Shown: piece after piece, positions 1-5,496 of the stretch
Layout of the letters: the number at the start of each line of letters is the position of its first letter
Position numbering within the stretch: the first letter of the stretch is position 1
DNA from: a virus
Length of the DNA: 5,496 nucleotides
Virus record (IMG/VR): IMGVR_UViG_3300045988_031707
Span: 1-5,496 of that record
Reading direction: 5' to 3' (one strand)
Notes under the pieces: generated by a model
The model's database searches: none
What the model was told of the DNA's origin: nothing
The model's input: the letters and a program-made list of their open reading frames with translations, nothing else
Translations under genes and position numbers: made by a program

Positions 1-55
1 AGGTTATTATTCTACATAAGTGAATATTAGCATATAAGTTATTTTTGCTCTGAAT
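1..55. repeat. Terminal direct repeat, copy 1. Identical to 5442-5496. Assembly overlap of a circular genome with unit length 5441 nt.
   Basis: Base-by-base comparison shows 1-55 (aggttattattctacataagtgaatattagcatataagttatttttgctctgaat) equals 5442-5496. The repeat runs to the very end of the window and cuts through the 3' end of the VP3 ORF, as expected for a linearised circle. Confidence 0.95.
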
Positions 56-482
56 TACTCTCTCCTGCTACCGGAGTGACAGGTGCTACCGGAGTATCTA
101 CAATAGCTTTAGGTTTAAGGCCTAACTCTTCAAGCCTAGATACAACTTTAGCGTCAGTAGATGTTAAAGCATCAAGCAGCATTCGTGGGTCATTGCCAAA
201 TTCGGCACGGACACTAGAAGGCAAATCTGCAAATTCTGCATTAACATTAGCAACAAGGTTGCAGGCTGTTTCATAATCAGGTAAAAGAGTAGTATCACCA
301 TACTGCAAAGTAGCCGGGTCATGTGCTCCAACAGAATCGACAATGCCGGTAGTATTAAAGTTAGCAATAATATGATGAATATCACATTCCTCGGCAAATG
401 TTTGGTCAGCAAGCGAAGGCTGAGTAATTTCAACATGAGGTTTGGGCGGTTGCTCATCGTAAAGCGTATAAAACTTAGCCAT
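39..482 (-). CDS. VP3: Internal scaffolding protein VP3 (gokushovirus type), 147 aa
   Basis: The ORF starts at ATG 482 and stops at TAA 39-41, with an AAGGAG Shine-Dalgarno site 10 nt upstream. The pattern PSLADQTFaeECDIhhIi...tG....YGD...lpDYe.a.N.v....eF.dLPssVRaeFgNDP matches my recollection of the conserved core of Microviridae VP3 scaffolds. No search was run. Confidence 0.8.
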   Translation of the reverse strand: MAKFYTLYDEQPPKPHVEITQPSLADQTFAEECDIHHIIANFNTTGIVDSVGAHDPATLQYGDTTLLPDYETACNLVANVNAEFADLPSSVRAEFGNDPRMLLDALTSTDAKVVSRLEELGLKPKAIVDTPVAPVTPVAGESNSEQK

Positions 483-608: not shown

Positions 609-1028
609 TCATACCGGCATAGCCGGTATATAAAAACAAAAAAGACGCTCAACATAACGCTGAACGCCTTTTAAGAGTTGCGGTATTACAACTTGCCTTG
701 TTAGCATTATACCACAACATTGGAAAGCGGGCAAGCGTACCTTATAACTACATTTTAGCAGTCTGGGGGGGGGAGTCAATAGTTCCGTAGCGGTAGACAA
801 AAGCAAAGTGGGATTTTGTGGGGAAAATGCGCACGTTTTATCATCAAACTCACCAAGATACATGAGAACGAAGTCCTCATGATAATCATGGATAATATTA
901 GAACGCTCCGGAGTAGAAGGCTGATTAACCATGATTTGGAACTGACGGATAGCCATAGCATTATTTTGTTGAACGAAGGGCGGATTCATCAGCTCACCCT
1001 TGCGGTCATAAATACAATAAAGTTTCAT
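609..1028 (-). CDS. VP5-like small non-structural protein. The start is well supported; the 3' end is uncertain and the real stop may be at 755-757 or 748-750.
   Basis: ATG at 1028 is preceded by GAGGTG with a 6-nt spacer. The GTG at 1037 used by the ORF track has no RBS. The N-terminal ~85 aa (MKLYCIYDRKGELmnPPFvqqNnamAIRqFq..VNqP.......H.EDFvLmyLGEFDDktc.fs) resemble the conserved ~85-100 aa gokushovirus ORF5/VP5 family as I remember it. After the C9 run at 765-773 the translation becomes Cys-rich and atypical, and it overlaps a promoter and a terminator. Confidence 0.6.
   Translation of the reverse strand: MKLYCIYDRKGELMNPPFVQQNNAMAIRQFQIMVNQPSTPERSNIIHDYHEDFVLMYLGEFDDKTCAFSPQNPTLLLSTATELLTPPPRLLKCSYKVRLPAFQCCGIMLTRQVVIPQLLKGVQRYVERLFCFYIPAMPV
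611..629 (-). other. GC-rich 8-bp hairpin with a 3-nt loop (ATACCGGC-tat-GCCGGTAT on the minus strand)
   Basis: ataccggc (611-618) and gccggtat (622-629) are exact reverse complements. The hairpin sits immediately 3' of the terminator U-tract on the minus strand and has no U-tract of its own. Confidence 0.6.
631..672 (-). terminator. Rho-independent terminator on the minus-strand transcript
   Basis: The minus-strand RNA reads aaaa-GGCGUUCAGC-guuau-GUUGAGCGUC-UUUUUUGUUUUU. This is a 10-bp stem (7 Watson-Crick plus 3 G-U pairs), a 5-nt loop and a U6-G-U5 tail. On the opposite strand the three G-U pairs become A-C mismatches, so the structure is specific to the minus-sense RNA. Confidence 0.7.
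706..734 (-). promoter_or_regulatory. Sigma70-type promoter with extended -10 (minus strand)
   Basis: The -35 is TTGCCC (734->729), the spacer is 17 nt, and TGg precedes a perfect -10 TATAAT (711->706). The predicted transcription start is near 699. It lies upstream of VP3, inside the 3' tail of the 142-aa ORF. Confidence 0.55.
765..773 (-). repeat. Homopolymer: G9 on the plus strand, C9 on the coding strand (encodes PPP)
   Basis: Counted directly as nine consecutive G at 765-773. It is the longest G/C homopolymer I noticed in the window. Confidence 0.95.
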
Positions 1029-1275
1029 TAATATCACCTCTTAAGTATTGAATGAGAACCTGTTTAGCTGCCATTGGCAGAAGAATGTAAACTTCATCAA
1101 AACAAATAATAGTTAATTGATTTTCTGCAACAATAGAATATTTCATACGTTCGCGATAGCCGCGAGCGCGAGAGTAAGTAGAAAAACGATAACCATATTT
1201 AGTTAGAAAATCATAAGCCTTGTTAAACTTATAATCATCAACACCAATAACACCTTCAGCGTAGTCTTTAAGCAT
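1006..1275 (-). CDS. Hypothetical protein, 89 aa (orphan/accessory ORF between Rep and the VP5-like gene)
   Basis: ATG at 1275 is preceded by GAGGTG with a 6-nt spacer. A predicted promoter lies about 25 nt further upstream. The stop is TGA at 1006-1008, overlapping the next gene start by 23 nt. I recognise no family motif. The 19 codons the ORF track adds upstream (to 1332) cover the promoter and have no RBS. Confidence 0.55.
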   Translation of the reverse strand: MLKDYAEGVIGVDDYKFNKAYDFLTKYGYRFSTYSRARGYRERMKYSIVAENQLTIICFDEVYILLPMAAKQVLIQYLRGDINETLLYL

Positions 1276-1329: not shown

Positions 1330-1369
1330 CAACTTTTAGCAACTTTTAGCAACTTTTAGCAACTTTTAC
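1330..1369. repeat. Tandem direct repeat: 4 x 10 bp (caacttttag x3, then caacttttac)
   Basis: There are three perfect units at 1330-1359 and a fourth at 1360-1369 with one mismatch. Each unit carries a T4/A4 tract, so the A-tracts are phased at about one helical turn. The last unit contains the Rep stop codon (1366-1368), and the array abuts the -35 element. Confidence 0.95.
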
Positions 1370-2310
1370 AAACCTAAATTATCAAAATCGCATTCAAATT
1401 GTTCCTGCCGGTGCTTCATAATTTTTTCGCGCGCTTCTAACCTTTTACAATCGATAACAGCAGCCTTTGCATTTTCGGCCTTTTGGTGCTTGTATATACT
1501 ATACCAAACGGGATTGCTGCGCTCAAATAATGTTTGATAATAGCGAGGTATTTTATATTTAGCTCCGTTAATTGTAACAAAACCTAATTTAAAAATATCC
1601 TCAGAGTAACGGTCAAAATAATCAGCTCCTATACCTGGCTTTAAAGAGCTGCCGACAAACTCCGGGGCAATGCCTAAAGCATCATACATACAGGCATTTT
1701 TACCGGTCTGCTTTTTAAGCGAATATTTAGCAACATACCGGGCAGATTCAAAAGTAATCGCACCAACAATACTGTAGCCATAAGGCCAAAGTTTCTCCAG
1801 CGTCGGAGAGCGAAAGAGATTATAACCAGATGTCAACGCCGAAACTTTCCGGACATCAGCAGGAAACCAACCAAAGCAAAGAATATGATAATGCGGCCTG
1901 CGATTAAGGTCGCCATACTCACCGCAGCACAGAAAACGTATCTTAGAATTGTCATGATAATCTAAATAGCGACGTAATCTCTTAAAAAAAAGTTGTAAGT
2001 GGTCGCGATGTAAAGAGCCGTCTGCTGGAAGGCAATCATCATTATAGGTCAGCGTGATGAAACAGTTATGCAAATGCAATTTAGCTTCGTGAACGCACCG
2101 AATAGCCCAGTCATTAGCTTTGTCCAAACGGCAACCAAGACATTGGCCACAGGGCACAACAACAGCATAATCATTAGCTAACTCAGCTTTAGCATATTCC
2201 AACGATTTACCGGACAACTGACGATAAGCAACAAAATTTGATAGCTCATACTTGCCGTTAGCGTTAGGCACAGCAGAGCGTTTAGCAAACATAGGATTAA
2301 GGCAAGTCAT
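1366..2310 (-). CDS. VP4: Replication initiation protein VP4 (HUH rolling-circle endonuclease, phiX174 gpA-like), 314 aa from ATG 2310
   Basis: The N-terminus MTCLNP fits the usual M-x-C-x-x-P start of gokushovirus VP4. The Cys cluster PCGQCLGCR is present. RCR motif 1 is FITLTY. The HUH motif is HYH (1885-1893, checked at nucleotide level). The two-tyrosine catalytic motif is YVAKY (1723-1737, also checked). The ORF track begins at GTG 2319, which remains an alternative start. No strong SD is present, and translation may be coupled to the upstream 37-aa ORF, whose stop is at 2326-2328. Confidence 0.93.
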   Translation of the reverse strand: MTCLNPMFAKRSAVPNANGKYELSNFVAYRQLSGKSLEYAKAELANDYAVVVPCGQCLGCRLDKANDWAIRCVHEAKLHLHNCFITLTYNDDCLPADGSLHRDHLQLFFKRLRRYLDYHDNSKIRFLCCGEYGDLNRRPHYHILCFGWFPADVRKVSALTSGYNLFRSPTLEKLWPYGYSIVGAITFESARYVAKYSLKKQTGKNACMYDALGIAPEFVGSSLKPGIGADYFDRYSEDIFKLGFVTINGAKYKIPRYYQTLFERSNPVWYSIYKHQKAENAKAAVIDCKRLEAREKIMKHRQEQFECDFDNLGL

Positions 2311-2325
2311 AATACACACAGCTTT

Positions 2326-2757: not shown

Positions 2758-3558
2758 TCACTTAGAAAAATAATTAGCAATACCAGAAAAAAGACGATTA
2801 GCAGCACGTCCGACAGTATTCCAAGGTAATCCGTCATCAGACAAACCAAGATTTTTATAATCGGAATTGCGAGAAGTTTTGTAATCATAATCAGCCTTAG
2901 CAACATTGGATAACTGAGCATTATAAGCGGCAGAACTATTAGCAGCGTTACCTTGTGCAATCATCATGTTAGCTTGAGCGGGCATAACTACATCACGCTG
3001 ATAGAGAGCATTTTGGGTTTGCTCAGAAATTAACTGACCTTGCTTTTTAGCATTTTCCAAATTCTGTTTATACAAAGCAACGTTATCAGCATATGTATCA
3101 GTAGCCAATTTATTAGCAATAGTTTTTCCAGCAGCTTCAGCTTCAAAATTCTTTGCAGTAGCAGCATTCAAAAGAACATCAGAATCTAACTTTTTAACAG
3201 TACCTTCACCAACACGCTGGGCAGTATCAGCCTGTTTTTGAGCAGCCTTAGCAGAGCTACCAGCAGCCTGAGCGGACATACCAGCAGTAACGCCTTCGCC
3301 TAAATTATACTGACTAGCAAGAGCAGAAGCACCATTAACAGAGCCACCAATACCAGAAGTAGCAGCAAGCATAGGATTTAAACCAGCTTTCTGCATATCC
3401 TGCATAGACCACTGATAGCGATGCTGGTAATTGTATTGATTACGCTGATTAGCTACTGTTGCAGCATGGCGGTCAGCAGAGTTAGAAAGAGCACCACCAA
3501 TGATAGACGCAATGCCACCAGTAACAGATCCAAGAGCAGAGCCAAGAAAGGAACCCAT
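2758..3558 (-). CDS. VP2: Minor capsid / DNA pilot protein VP2, 266 aa
   Basis: ATG at 3558 is preceded by AAGGAG, which begins at the last base of the VP1 stop codon. The N-terminus is Gly-rich and hydrophobic (MGSFLGSALGSVTGGIASIIGGALS). The motif YQWSMQDMQKAGLNPMLA is present. A long Ala/Gln/Asn-rich region, probably coiled-coil, follows. All of this is typical of Microviridae VP2 and of its position after VP1. Confidence 0.85.
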   Translation of the reverse strand: MGSFLGSALGSVTGGIASIIGGALSNSADRHAATVANQRNQYNYQHRYQWSMQDMQKAGLNPMLAATSGIGGSVNGASALASQYNLGEGVTAGMSAQAAGSSAKAAQKQADTAQRVGEGTVKKLDSDVLLNAATAKNFEAEAAGKTIANKLATDTYADNVALYKQNLENAKKQGQLISEQTQNALYQRDVVMPAQANMMIAQGNAANSSAAYNAQLSNVAKADYDYKTSRNSDYKNLGLSDDGLPWNTVGRAANRLFSGIANYFSK

Positions 3559-3570
3559 TTAAACCACTCC

Positions 3571-5268
3571 TTAGAAATGACCCATCATACCGGGTATACC
3601 ATACATAGGCATCGGGCGAATACATTTCAAATTAAATTTAACGTCGAGCAAGAAGTGAGGATAAGACGGAACGGCAACAACACGACTAATAGGCGGGTGG
3701 TCTTGTATAAATTCATCCGAGAGCGTAGGCAACGTAGCAAATTTCTGTGACAAATGCCAAATGTCTAAAGGTTCTTTATAGGTTGAGCGGAATTGACCGG
3801 TAATCAAAGACGGCTTATAACGATATTCTGCATAGCGTTCTTGATAGCCAAATACCTTTTTATCATCTTCATTTCCTTGACAATAAATCTCAATATTTTG
3901 TATAGCCTGCTCGCCTAAGTGAGCAAAGGACGGCCAATAGAAATCCAAGACATCAGAACGCAGCCACATCTTGTTAACGCCTTGCTGATAAGTCAAATCA
4001 GCACGCACATTAATTAAACCGATAACATAACCAAATTCACTAAATGACTTAGTGAAAGCATGATAGCGTTGGGCATTTAAACCATATGCAGCTAAATTGC
4101 CTTGTGGAGTAGTGGAATCCGTGGAGCTTGTCTGAGTAACCGGGTTAATATTCATCATACTACTATGCGAGCCGAGGAACTCAGGACGTTGCAGCCGGGC
4201 ATCCGGATTAGTTACACCAAAGTGAACTTGTAATTTTTCCGTATAACGAGTACCACCACGAGCATCAATCTCATAATACCTTTGCAGCATAAACGCTTGA
4301 CGAAGCGAATTAATAGTTATTAAAGAAACATCGGACATATCAGCATAAACGCCAGTAGCATAACCAGATTCTTTAGTTGGTAAACCACCAAGACTCAAAT
4401 AGTTAGGATTAGTAAAAGAACCAGAACCGACAGCACCGATAGAAGCACCATTATTAGCAGCTAAAGTAACACGAGCGGAAGTATGAGAACCCTGAGTTTC
4501 ATACAAAGAAAGACCAGCCGTACCAGTACCAGCAAAATTGAGAGCTAAAGCACCATTACCATAAACGGGAGCTTGACCGCCTAAAGGCAAATCAACAGCA
4601 GGGCCTTTTTGTGGCCACGGCAGCGCACCGGTGAAATAGTCATATCTTTTTCCACGCGGAGCCGGGTCATACCAATTAGATACGCCGGACGGCAAACCAT
4701 AATTAGGATTAGCGGTAGATCGTCCCATAGGTTCCAAGACTGTGTTAGTTTCGCCTTTGCTAACCTTAACAGACTTTTGCAGGTTCTCATCTCTGAACCA
4801 CTCATTCCAAATGAGCCAATACGAACGAAACGGCAAGCAGTTGACGGAAACATTATTAAAAGTACCATTACTACAAGCAATACCCATATAATCGGGGAGC
4901 TTATTTGTCATATCACCGGTTAAGGAAACAGTAGGAACAAGATAATCCGTAGAATCTTCCGGATTCTCCTGCTCGCCGCACAAATTAACCCATTTATCAT
5001 ATACAAGGCGGGACGGAACAAAGAAGAAGAAACTCTCAATGTAAATGTTATCCATAAACGGAACGACCGGAGTAGCTAAACGGCAGAACTCCACAGGATT
5101 AAGAGTGAACGTATCGCCTGGAATAACCTCATCCACAAAGTAAGGAATGAGATGGCCTTCGTTAAAAGTTGTCTTGTAAACATGACTTCTATCGAAGACA
5201 GAACGGCGAATATTAGCTTGTGGAATCATCGCGAAATGCGATTGATTAACACGAATATTACGAGCCAT
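3571..5268 (-). CDS. VP1: Major capsid protein VP1 (Microviridae F-protein fold), 565 aa
   Basis: ATG at 5268 is preceded by AAGGAG with a 9-nt spacer. Hallmark blocks are present: IRRSVFDRSHvyKTTFneGhLIPyfVDEViPGDTF, ALPWPQKG, INsLRQAFmLQRyyEidARGGTRYtE...HFGV...DaRLQRPEfLG and FGYQERYAEYRYKPS. The size is typical of gokushovirus VP1. Confidence 0.97.
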   Translation of the reverse strand: MARNIRVNQSHFAMIPQANIRRSVFDRSHVYKTTFNEGHLIPYFVDEVIPGDTFTLNPVEFCRLATPVVPFMDNIYIESFFFFVPSRLVYDKWVNLCGEQENPEDSTDYLVPTVSLTGDMTNKLPDYMGIACSNGTFNNVSVNCLPFRSYWLIWNEWFRDENLQKSVKVSKGETNTVLEPMGRSTANPNYGLPSGVSNWYDPAPRGKRYDYFTGALPWPQKGPAVDLPLGGQAPVYGNGALALNFAGTGTAGLSLYETQGSHTSARVTLAANNGASIGAVGSGSFTNPNYLSLGGLPTKESGYATGVYADMSDVSLITINSLRQAFMLQRYYEIDARGGTRYTEKLQVHFGVTNPDARLQRPEFLGSHSSMMNINPVTQTSSTDSTTPQGNLAAYGLNAQRYHAFTKSFSEFGYVIGLINVRADLTYQQGVNKMWLRSDVLDFYWPSFAHLGEQAIQNIEIYCQGNEDDKKVFGYQERYAEYRYKPSLITGQFRSTYKEPLDIWHLSQKFATLPTLSDEFIQDHPPISRVVAVPSYPHFLLDVKFNLKCIRPMPMYGIPGMMGHF

Positions 5269-5392
5269 TTTTAAAATCTCCTTATTTTTATTAAAAGGCC
5301 AAAAAGCGCGAGAACGGCATTTTTTGTTATCAAATCAGAAGGTAATTAAAAATTAAAAAAAGGCTTATTTTTTAAAGGTTTTTCTGATTTTG

Positions 5393-5441
5393 TGTCACCT
5401 TGACCAGTTACTATCAAGTAGGGTAACTGGTCAAGGTGACA
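5393..5441 (-). other. Perfect 19-bp stem / 11-nt loop hairpin. Candidate replication origin (Rep nick site in the loop).
   Basis: Arm 5393-5411 (tgtcaccttgaccagttac) is the exact reverse complement of arm 5423-5441. The loop 5412-5422 reads CCTACTTGATA on the minus (virion-sense) strand. No T/U-tract follows on either strand. It is located in the only large non-coding region. Confidence 0.6.
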
Positions 5442-5496
5442 AGGTTATTATTCTACATAAGTGAATATTAGCATATAAGTTATTTTTGCTCTGAAT
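5442..5496. repeat. Terminal direct repeat, copy 2 (identical to 1-55). Includes a truncated duplicate of the VP3 3' end (5480-5496).
   Basis: Exact 55/55 identity to the window start. Confidence 0.95.

Follow-up and report, generated by a model that had tools for sequence, protein, structure and literature searches.

Few single-stranded DNA phages of gut, marine and soil viromes are as abundant as the gokushovirus-type microviruses. Among rolling-circle replicons, the origins of CRESS-DNA viruses carry a nonanucleotide such as TAGTATT^AC in a stem-loop. In phiX174, G4 and alpha3 (Bullavirinae) the viral strand is cleaved by the replication protein gpA at CAACTTG^ATATTAATAAC..., and the initial annotation of the DNA studied here was right that phiX174 has its origin within gene A and without a hairpin, as can be read from the phiX174 record, in which rep_origin 4306 is the A of CTTG^AT. 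The Reps of the two Microviridae subfamilies are homologous, VP4 to phiX174 gpA (PMC6668415), and the origins of phiX174 and pT181 consist of a nick site plus a separate bind site 3' of it (PMC5714925). An experimentally mapped gokushovirus origin was presumed to be lacking, and we found no report of one in the full-text literature, older subscription papers lying outside that search.

The stretch of DNA analyzed here (5,496 nt, hereafter the window) is a complete gokushovirus-type genome with all of its genes on the minus strand. Positions 1-55 are identical to 5442-5496, and this exact 55-nt terminal direct repeat, which fits a circular contig with an assembly overlap, implies that the genome is a 5441-nt circle. 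The repeat begins at the base adjoining the hairpin described below; the resulting contig break just outside the hairpin was considered as evidence for a nick and discarded, the break being probably arbitrary. The genes comprise VP1 (5268..3571; Phage_F, E = 4e-172), a VP2-sized ORF (3558..2758) labelled by its position and without Pfam hit, VP4/Rep (2319..1366; Pfam PF23343, E = 3e-22), ORF5 (1037..609) and the VP3 scaffold gene (482..39), all on the minus strand; once the circle is closed, VP3 and VP1 are separated by a spacer of about 211 nt (5479..5269). VP4, the presumed HUH rolling-circle Rep for the hairpin, has its HUH motif, HYH, at residues 151-153 and its two-tyrosine motif, YVAKY, at residues 195-199 in the context RYVAKYSLKK. 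The counterparts in phiX174 gpA read HFHAVHF and FYVAKYVNKK, and YVAKY is identical in VP4 and in the gpA of phiX174 and G4, so that the motif comparison bears out the two-tyrosine active site initially reported as common to both proteins. Whole-genome megablast revealed no close DNA-level relatives among GenBank phages, giving two short VP1 matches only. A sequence search of the PDB did not find a solved VP4 homologue, and a structure-based docking argument was therefore impossible.

The hairpin (5393..5441, minus strand) is located in the VP3-VP1 spacer, 38 nt past the VP3 stop and 124 nt before the VP1 start. As first described, it is a perfect 19-bp inverted repeat with arms at 5393-5411 and 5423-5441, 100% complementary and separated by 11 nt. 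No inverted repeat of the window is longer or better, and it is the strongest hairpin in the 5441-nt genome: folded as single-stranded DNA, the gene-sense strand reaches -21 kcal/mol (z = -8.5), a value that none of 200 shuffles equalled, and the hairpin stays, and dominates, when the whole intergenic region is folded. Read in gene sense on the minus strand, the 5' arm TGTCACCTTGACCAGTTAC (5423..5441) is followed by the loop CCTACTTGATA (5422 to 5412), by the apical 3' arm GTAACTGGTCA (5401..5411), which pairs with 5423-5433, and by a 3' box, AGGTGACAC (5392..5400).

Inside the loop, CTACTTGATA (5421 to 5412) matches the phiX174 decamer CAACTTGATA at nine of ten positions, again in agreement with the initial annotation, and is the sole such site in the window. 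The initial annotation had also extended the match into the 3' arm, ACTTGATAGTAA against phiX174 ACTTGATATTAA; the count of 11/12 is correct, but the extension into the stem is lineage-specific, most relatives reading GAT-GTAAC. The window bases corresponding to the annotated phiX174 cleavage position are G5415 and A5414 on the minus strand, and alignment with that origin places the predicted VP4 nick at G5415^A5414, 3 nt before the 3' arm in the window and 2 nt before it in most relatives. A match of at least 9/10 to the decamer is expected 0.42 times per genome by chance and was present in 65 of 200 shuffles, so that the match taken alone is weak evidence and the real support comes from conservation among relatives; a post hoc calculation for the loop's two 10-mer positions on the gene-sense strand alone gives a chance of about 1e-4.

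Directly downstream of the hairpin a second structured element was observed, in which 5332-5340 pairs with 5382-5390 (minus strand) and encloses an AT-rich hairpin. Across 16 close relatives this stem exists in two haplotypes, ATCAG/CTGAT and ATACG/CGTAT, which are correlated in 16/16 cases, i.e., a double compensatory change, and an invariant ATTTGATAAC at 5335..5326 resembles the nick core plus stem (CTTGAT-GTAAC). The downstream stem (5332-5390) is possibly a complementary-strand origin or a regulatory site.

When the spacer was used in a sensitive blastn search, the hairpin, and essentially nothing else, was retrieved from many otherwise unalignable microviruses; its conservation persists where DNA-level alignment of the remaining genome fails. 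A pattern scan of microvirus-size contigs in IMG/VR detected the element in at least 120 contigs, and a 43-nt consensus matched 253 GenBank records, all of them microviruses, with no feature, or just a CDS or similarity feature, under the element among the 40 matches listed. In a further set of 59 contigs, picked by VP1 or VP4 protein similarity only and against circularity, 54 presented a gene-sense hairpin with CTTG(A/T) in the loop region (L187 being doubtful, with its hit within the VP4 match), while the other five had the element in a version with a single substitution in the core (CTCGAT in L175; CTAGAT in L186, L188, L197, and L198). The initial annotation had named beforehand the conservation of loop motif and stem among relatives as the point on which its reading should stand or fall, and these figures speak in its favor. 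The element is found in almost all gokushovirus-type phages. The cultured phages Chp2 (CTAGCGTATAACAG-tctacttgat-CTGTTATACGCTAG), SpV4 (TGGGGCATAT-attacttgttata-ATATGCCCCA) and phiMH2K (GTTCGGCTAC-ggaccctacttgttgtaa-GTAGCCGAAC) carry it with entirely different stems, and its known range covers phages or prophages of Chlamydia (Chp2), Spiroplasma (SpV4), Bdellovibrio (phiMH2K), Phascolarctobacterium and Escherichia coli. It is always intergenic, in one of the two chief spacers: 91 genomes carry it upstream of VP4, at a median of 181 nt, and 75 carry it upstream of VP1, at a median of 131 nt.

Two further observations were made in these collections. In the group L152-L175 (53-56% VP1 identity; e.g., L152, 1287-1326) many genomes have a second conserved hairpin, AAACCTAATAAT-16 nt-ATTATTAGGTTT, standing ~50 nt downstream of the origin-type hairpin. 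At the contig junction of L016 in IMG/VR (about 5099, wrapping to the start) we encountered a 61-bp palindrome of the Nextera transposase adapter (CTGTCTCTTATACACATCT...), which is an assembly artefact.

The anatomy of the element was derived from 138-158 unique copies. The invariance of CTTG is partly due to construction, the element finder and one contig scan having required this tetranucleotide; the adjacent bases, only partly imposed, are A at -1 in 142 of 158 unique relatives, T or C at -2 and, following CTTG, A (or T) and then T, the family motif being (T/C)ACTTG(A/T)T. Stem positions 1-11 are Watson-Crick paired in 83-100% of the copies with up to four pair types per position, all four being present at positions 8-11, whereas permuting the arms between sequences left just 32-68% paired at positions 6-11. 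In a formal covariation test on a 59-sequence alignment, 75.6% of the cells were paired vs. 61.3% in shuffled alignments and 27-46% in slid controls, and the covariation score was 0.346 vs. 0.125, with none of 500 shuffles as high. Changes on both sides occur in 15 of the 19 stem pairs, and the inverted repeat is maintained by compensatory change, as the initial annotation would have led one to expect.

The base of the stem behaves differently. Among 138 unique elements, no more than 34-57% have positions 12-20 paired, and the information content of these positions is 0.8-1.2 on the 3' side vs. below 0.3 in the 5' arm; the 3' box, (A/G)(G/C)TGACAC, is conserved even where it is unpaired (e.g., in L009, L023, L035, SpV4, and L177). 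Since the basal stem is often unpaired and its 3' side is conserved as sequence, the 19-bp stem is a lineage-specific pairing of an asymmetric 3' box, and only the apical 11 bp are conserved as a helix. In the window, accordingly, only the apical 11 nt of the 5' arm (5433..5423) take part in the family-wide, covarying helix, and its basal 8 nt are the lineage-specific complement of the box, itself a candidate Rep-binding site ~20 nt downstream of the predicted nick. In fifteen close relatives, at about 85% VP1 identity, the 19-bp stem persists, with compensatory pairs in L140, L141, and L149. Iterated repeats (iterons) were not seen by the element.

The location between genes, often shortly upstream of VP1 or VP4, and the resemblance of TGACA in the 3' box to a -35 hexamer could indicate a function in RNA or transcription, be it as terminator or 3'-end stabilizer of the upstream mRNA or as operator or promoter for the downstream gene. 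We judge such a function very improbable. No T-run follows the stem on either strand, the consensus 3' flank being ACCAAA, and a terminator scan was empty; a promoter scan of the window spacer disclosed no promoter-like site, and TGACA as a -35 hexamer was rejected because no conserved -10 exists at a fixed distance from the box (information content 0.1-0.4 at +30 to +43). Moreover, a purely structural RNA role fails to explain a loop sequence that stays fixed amid stem turnover, and Rfam returned nothing above noise, the best hit being mir-582 at 22.8 bits vs. a threshold of 84.

What stays fixed in the loop is the mapped cleavage site of phiX174 and G4, CAACTTG^ATA, and in the relatives L194 and L199 the likeness to phiX174 rises, by our own count, to 13/15 (CTACTTGATATTAAC vs. 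CAACTTGATATTAAT). With a matrix built from the relatives, the true phiX174 origin was ranked 4th of 10,772 sites; with the core masked in the same matrix it fell to 494th of 10,772, so that only the core is common to the gokushovirus element and the phiX174 origin, and homology extending over the full 30-nt phiX174 origin was rejected. The identity of the consensus to the phiX174 origin is 16/32, and outside the core only GAC at +21..+23 coincides.

Conservation, the shared core and the shared catalytic motif together make a viral (+) strand origin of rolling-circle replication the best explanation of the hairpin, and on sequence grounds we consider it likely that the element serves as such an origin, with the VP4 nick at G5415^A5414. 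The persistence of a sequence-specific, strand-specific and structured element in phages of unrelated bacteria suggests that a conserved phage protein recognizes it, and the only such DNA enzyme encoded is VP4. The asymmetric 3' box also matches the layout of a nick site plus a 3' bind site. Binding of VP4 at the hairpin, the cut at G^A and the formation of a cruciform are steps that we infer. In the supercoiled RF the inverted repeat would be extruded as a cruciform, or the region would melt, and the loop, (C)CTACTTGAT(A), would thereby become single-stranded on the gene-sense strand. VP4 could dock on the apical stem and the conserved 3' box, after which one of the YVAKY tyrosines would cut between G5415 and A5414, i.e., after ...CCTACTTG, leaving VP4 covalently joined to the 5' phosphate of the A (5'-ATAGTAAC...) and a free 3'-OH to prime the host polymerase. 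After one round, the hairpin regenerated on the displaced strand would be cut by the second tyrosine and the strand ligated to a circle for packaging.

Several points count against a (+) strand origin. There is no similarity to the 30-nt phiX174 origin beyond the core; phiX174 does without a hairpin, which means that this Rep family does not need one; six genomes have the module in the opposite orientation to their genes; and a complementary-strand origin would also look like a strand-specific hairpin. Contig ends were considered as a further trace of nicking and proved uninformative, the nick lying within 150 nt of an end (<=150 nt) in 16 of 153 contigs vs. about 6% expected, and in none of the 153 did a contig end coincide with G^A.

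As a complementary (-) strand origin, the hairpin on the incoming, SSB-coated viral DNA would recruit host primase, RNA polymerase or the primosome and start the conversion to the double-stranded form, like the intergenic hairpins of G4 and phiX174, and the Rep nick would lie elsewhere or the element would have a dual role. We regard this as unlikely, though it agrees with a stable intergenic hairpin of strong strand bias on the packaged-sense strand (assuming that the packaged strand is gene-sense), and the sole paper found on conserved microvirus hairpins, from a different clade, reads them in this way, considering only (-) strand priming (PMC9865509). The loop with its closing base, CCCTACTTG, can in addition be compared with the G4 primer template ...GTCCCTACTG beside the G4 hairpin (L200, 3988-3998), CCCTACT being common to the window loop and the G4 primase start site; this resemblance was given less weight because the G4-like 5' part of the loop varies over the family (TTAC, TCAC, CAC, CTAC), the conserved part being ACTTGAT plus the 3' stem and box. 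The start trinucleotide of E. coli primase, CTG, is absent from the consensus loop. Known (-) strand origins are specific to the host, even those of phiX174 and G4 being different, whereas Chlamydia, Spiroplasma, Bdellovibrio, Negativicutes and E. coli all have phages with this motif, a distribution more easily explained if a conserved phage protein, and not a host factor, recognizes the element. Furthermore, no other candidate for the essential (+) strand origin was found in the genome, whose only 9/10 match to the gpA decamer is the loop, and the separate covarying stem downstream (5332-5390) could fill the priming role.

The strand bias itself is pronounced, the motif being on the gene-sense strand in 113 of 114 contigs among the pattern-scan matches listed, in every canonical member of the protein-selected set, and overall in about 96% of the copies. 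The whole module, loop motif and 3' box, runs against the direction of the genes in L008 (1751-1800), L009 (1024-1064), L011 (5345-5385), L037 (about 522-542), L197 (~530-570), and L198 (~365-405), and a search of L008, L009, L011, and L037 did not reveal a second, sense-oriented copy. The samples behind L009 and L011 are independent of each other (pig faeces in China and human blood in Spain). If the element is the (+) strand origin, its inversion implies that those phages would package the antisense strand, for which we know of no precedent in Microviridae. A bolder proposal, which we advance tentatively and hold to be rather doubtful, is that the hairpin and the 3' box form an autonomous origin module that can be inverted and by itself determines the strand to be nicked, displaced and packaged. 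In that case the virions of L008, L009/L011, L037, and L197/L198 would be antisense to all mRNAs and represent the first negative-sense microviruses, and where a long perfect palindrome includes the box (window, L008) flipping the 10-11-nt loop alone would switch polarity. In another contig, L127, VP4 and VP1 lie on opposite strands with the hairpin (about 1161-1192) between them, an arrangement that stems either from a genuine inversion at the hairpin or from a chimera that arose at the inverted repeat during amplification or assembly.

Prophages were sought with a pattern scan of 596 Gb of bacterial genomes, used for this end only, as about 280 chance matches were expected by our calculation; VP1 or VP4 is encoded at only 13 of 120 loci among the matches listed. 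The element occurs in 7 of 5426 complete E. coli genomes. The chromosome of Phascolarctobacterium faecium DSM 14760 (L236) harbors a 4.5-kb gokushovirus prophage with a 16-nt direct repeat, ATATATATTATGTAAA, at 2793-2808 and 7326-7341, the hairpin (about 7196-7244) lying inward of the right repeat by about 80 nt. This repeat, which resembles a Firmicutes-type dif site, suggests XerCD-mediated integration in a Negativicutes host. In E. coli strain C5 the prophage (L321, 3876-8162) is located beside hipBA in the chromosome, with the order VP4-VP5-VP3-hairpin-VP1-VP2; the hairpin (~5497-5533), CCTGGCACAGT-gccctacttgatgta-ACTGTGCCAGG, has the 3' box (TGACAC) after it, which extends to about 5540, and the hairpin carries no annotation.

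The integration of some gokushoviruses as prophages, and the nature of the element as an imperfect palindrome in non-coding DNA, might point to a site-specific recombination (attachment) site for lysogeny, e.g., of the XerCD/dif type. This role is contradicted by both prophage maps, with the P. faecium repeats being separate from the hairpin and the E. coli C5 hairpin sitting mid-prophage between VP3 and VP1, more than 1.5 kb away from both ends; Chp2 and SpV4, which are lytic phages, carry the element too. The probability that the element acts as an attachment site appears negligible.

The candidate gokushovirus rolling-circle origin is, as far as we found, an unannotated and previously undescribed element, no prior description of it being found in the full-text literature, a scope to which the original genome papers of Chp2, SpV4 and phiMH2K do not belong. 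Should the (+) strand origin reading be correct, gokushoviruses would gain a nick site defined with nucleotide precision and occurring also in prophages of a tractable host, E. coli. The element would then offer a universal landmark to orient and zero-point microvirus genomes and a cis element for gokushovirus phagemids or replicons, a few lineages would be predicted to package the opposite strand, and the hairpin-less intragenic origin of phiX174 and the hairpin origins of other rolling-circle replicons would represent one cleavage motif in two presentations.

Among the known systems, the origin of phiX174, G4 and alpha3 has the core ACTTGAT on the viral-sense strand, as has the gokushovirus element, and in both cases a homologous Rep with HUH and identical YVAKY motifs is encoded and a conserved segment stands about 20 nt 3' of the nick site. 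Unlike the phiX174 motif, intragenic and outside any inverted repeat, that of the gokushoviruses is intergenic and lies in the loop of a covarying hairpin, and the AT-rich spacer and distal sequence of phiX174 have no detectable relation to the gokushovirus stem and box. The G4 oric hairpins and the phiX174 primosome assembly site (F-G spacer) are likewise intergenic viral-strand hairpins of microviruses; the G4 primer start, for all its 7-nt identity with the window loop, is however placed beside the hairpin and not in its loop. These complementary-strand sites are host-factor sites, unconserved even between G4 and phiX174, whereas the gokushovirus element is conserved across unrelated hosts and its conserved part, unlike theirs, is the gpA-like core. 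CRESS-DNA virus and pMV158/pT181 origins also have an inverted repeat whose loop carries a conserved nick motif, with strict strand polarity, and the predicted cut 2-3 nt before the 3' arm and the intergenic site, often next to rep, are further traits of this kind. In CRESS-DNA virus and plasmid origins a sequence beside the nick hairpin binds the Rep, a part for which the 3' box is here a candidate only. The CRESS loop motif, on the other hand, is unrelated to that of the gokushoviruses, the latter show no iterated repeats, and CRESS Reps combine a single catalytic tyrosine with a fused helicase, whereas VP4 has two tyrosines and no helicase. By descent of its Rep and motif, the element would therefore belong with the phiX174 origin, while its architecture would work like that of CRESS-DNA virus and pMV158-type origins.
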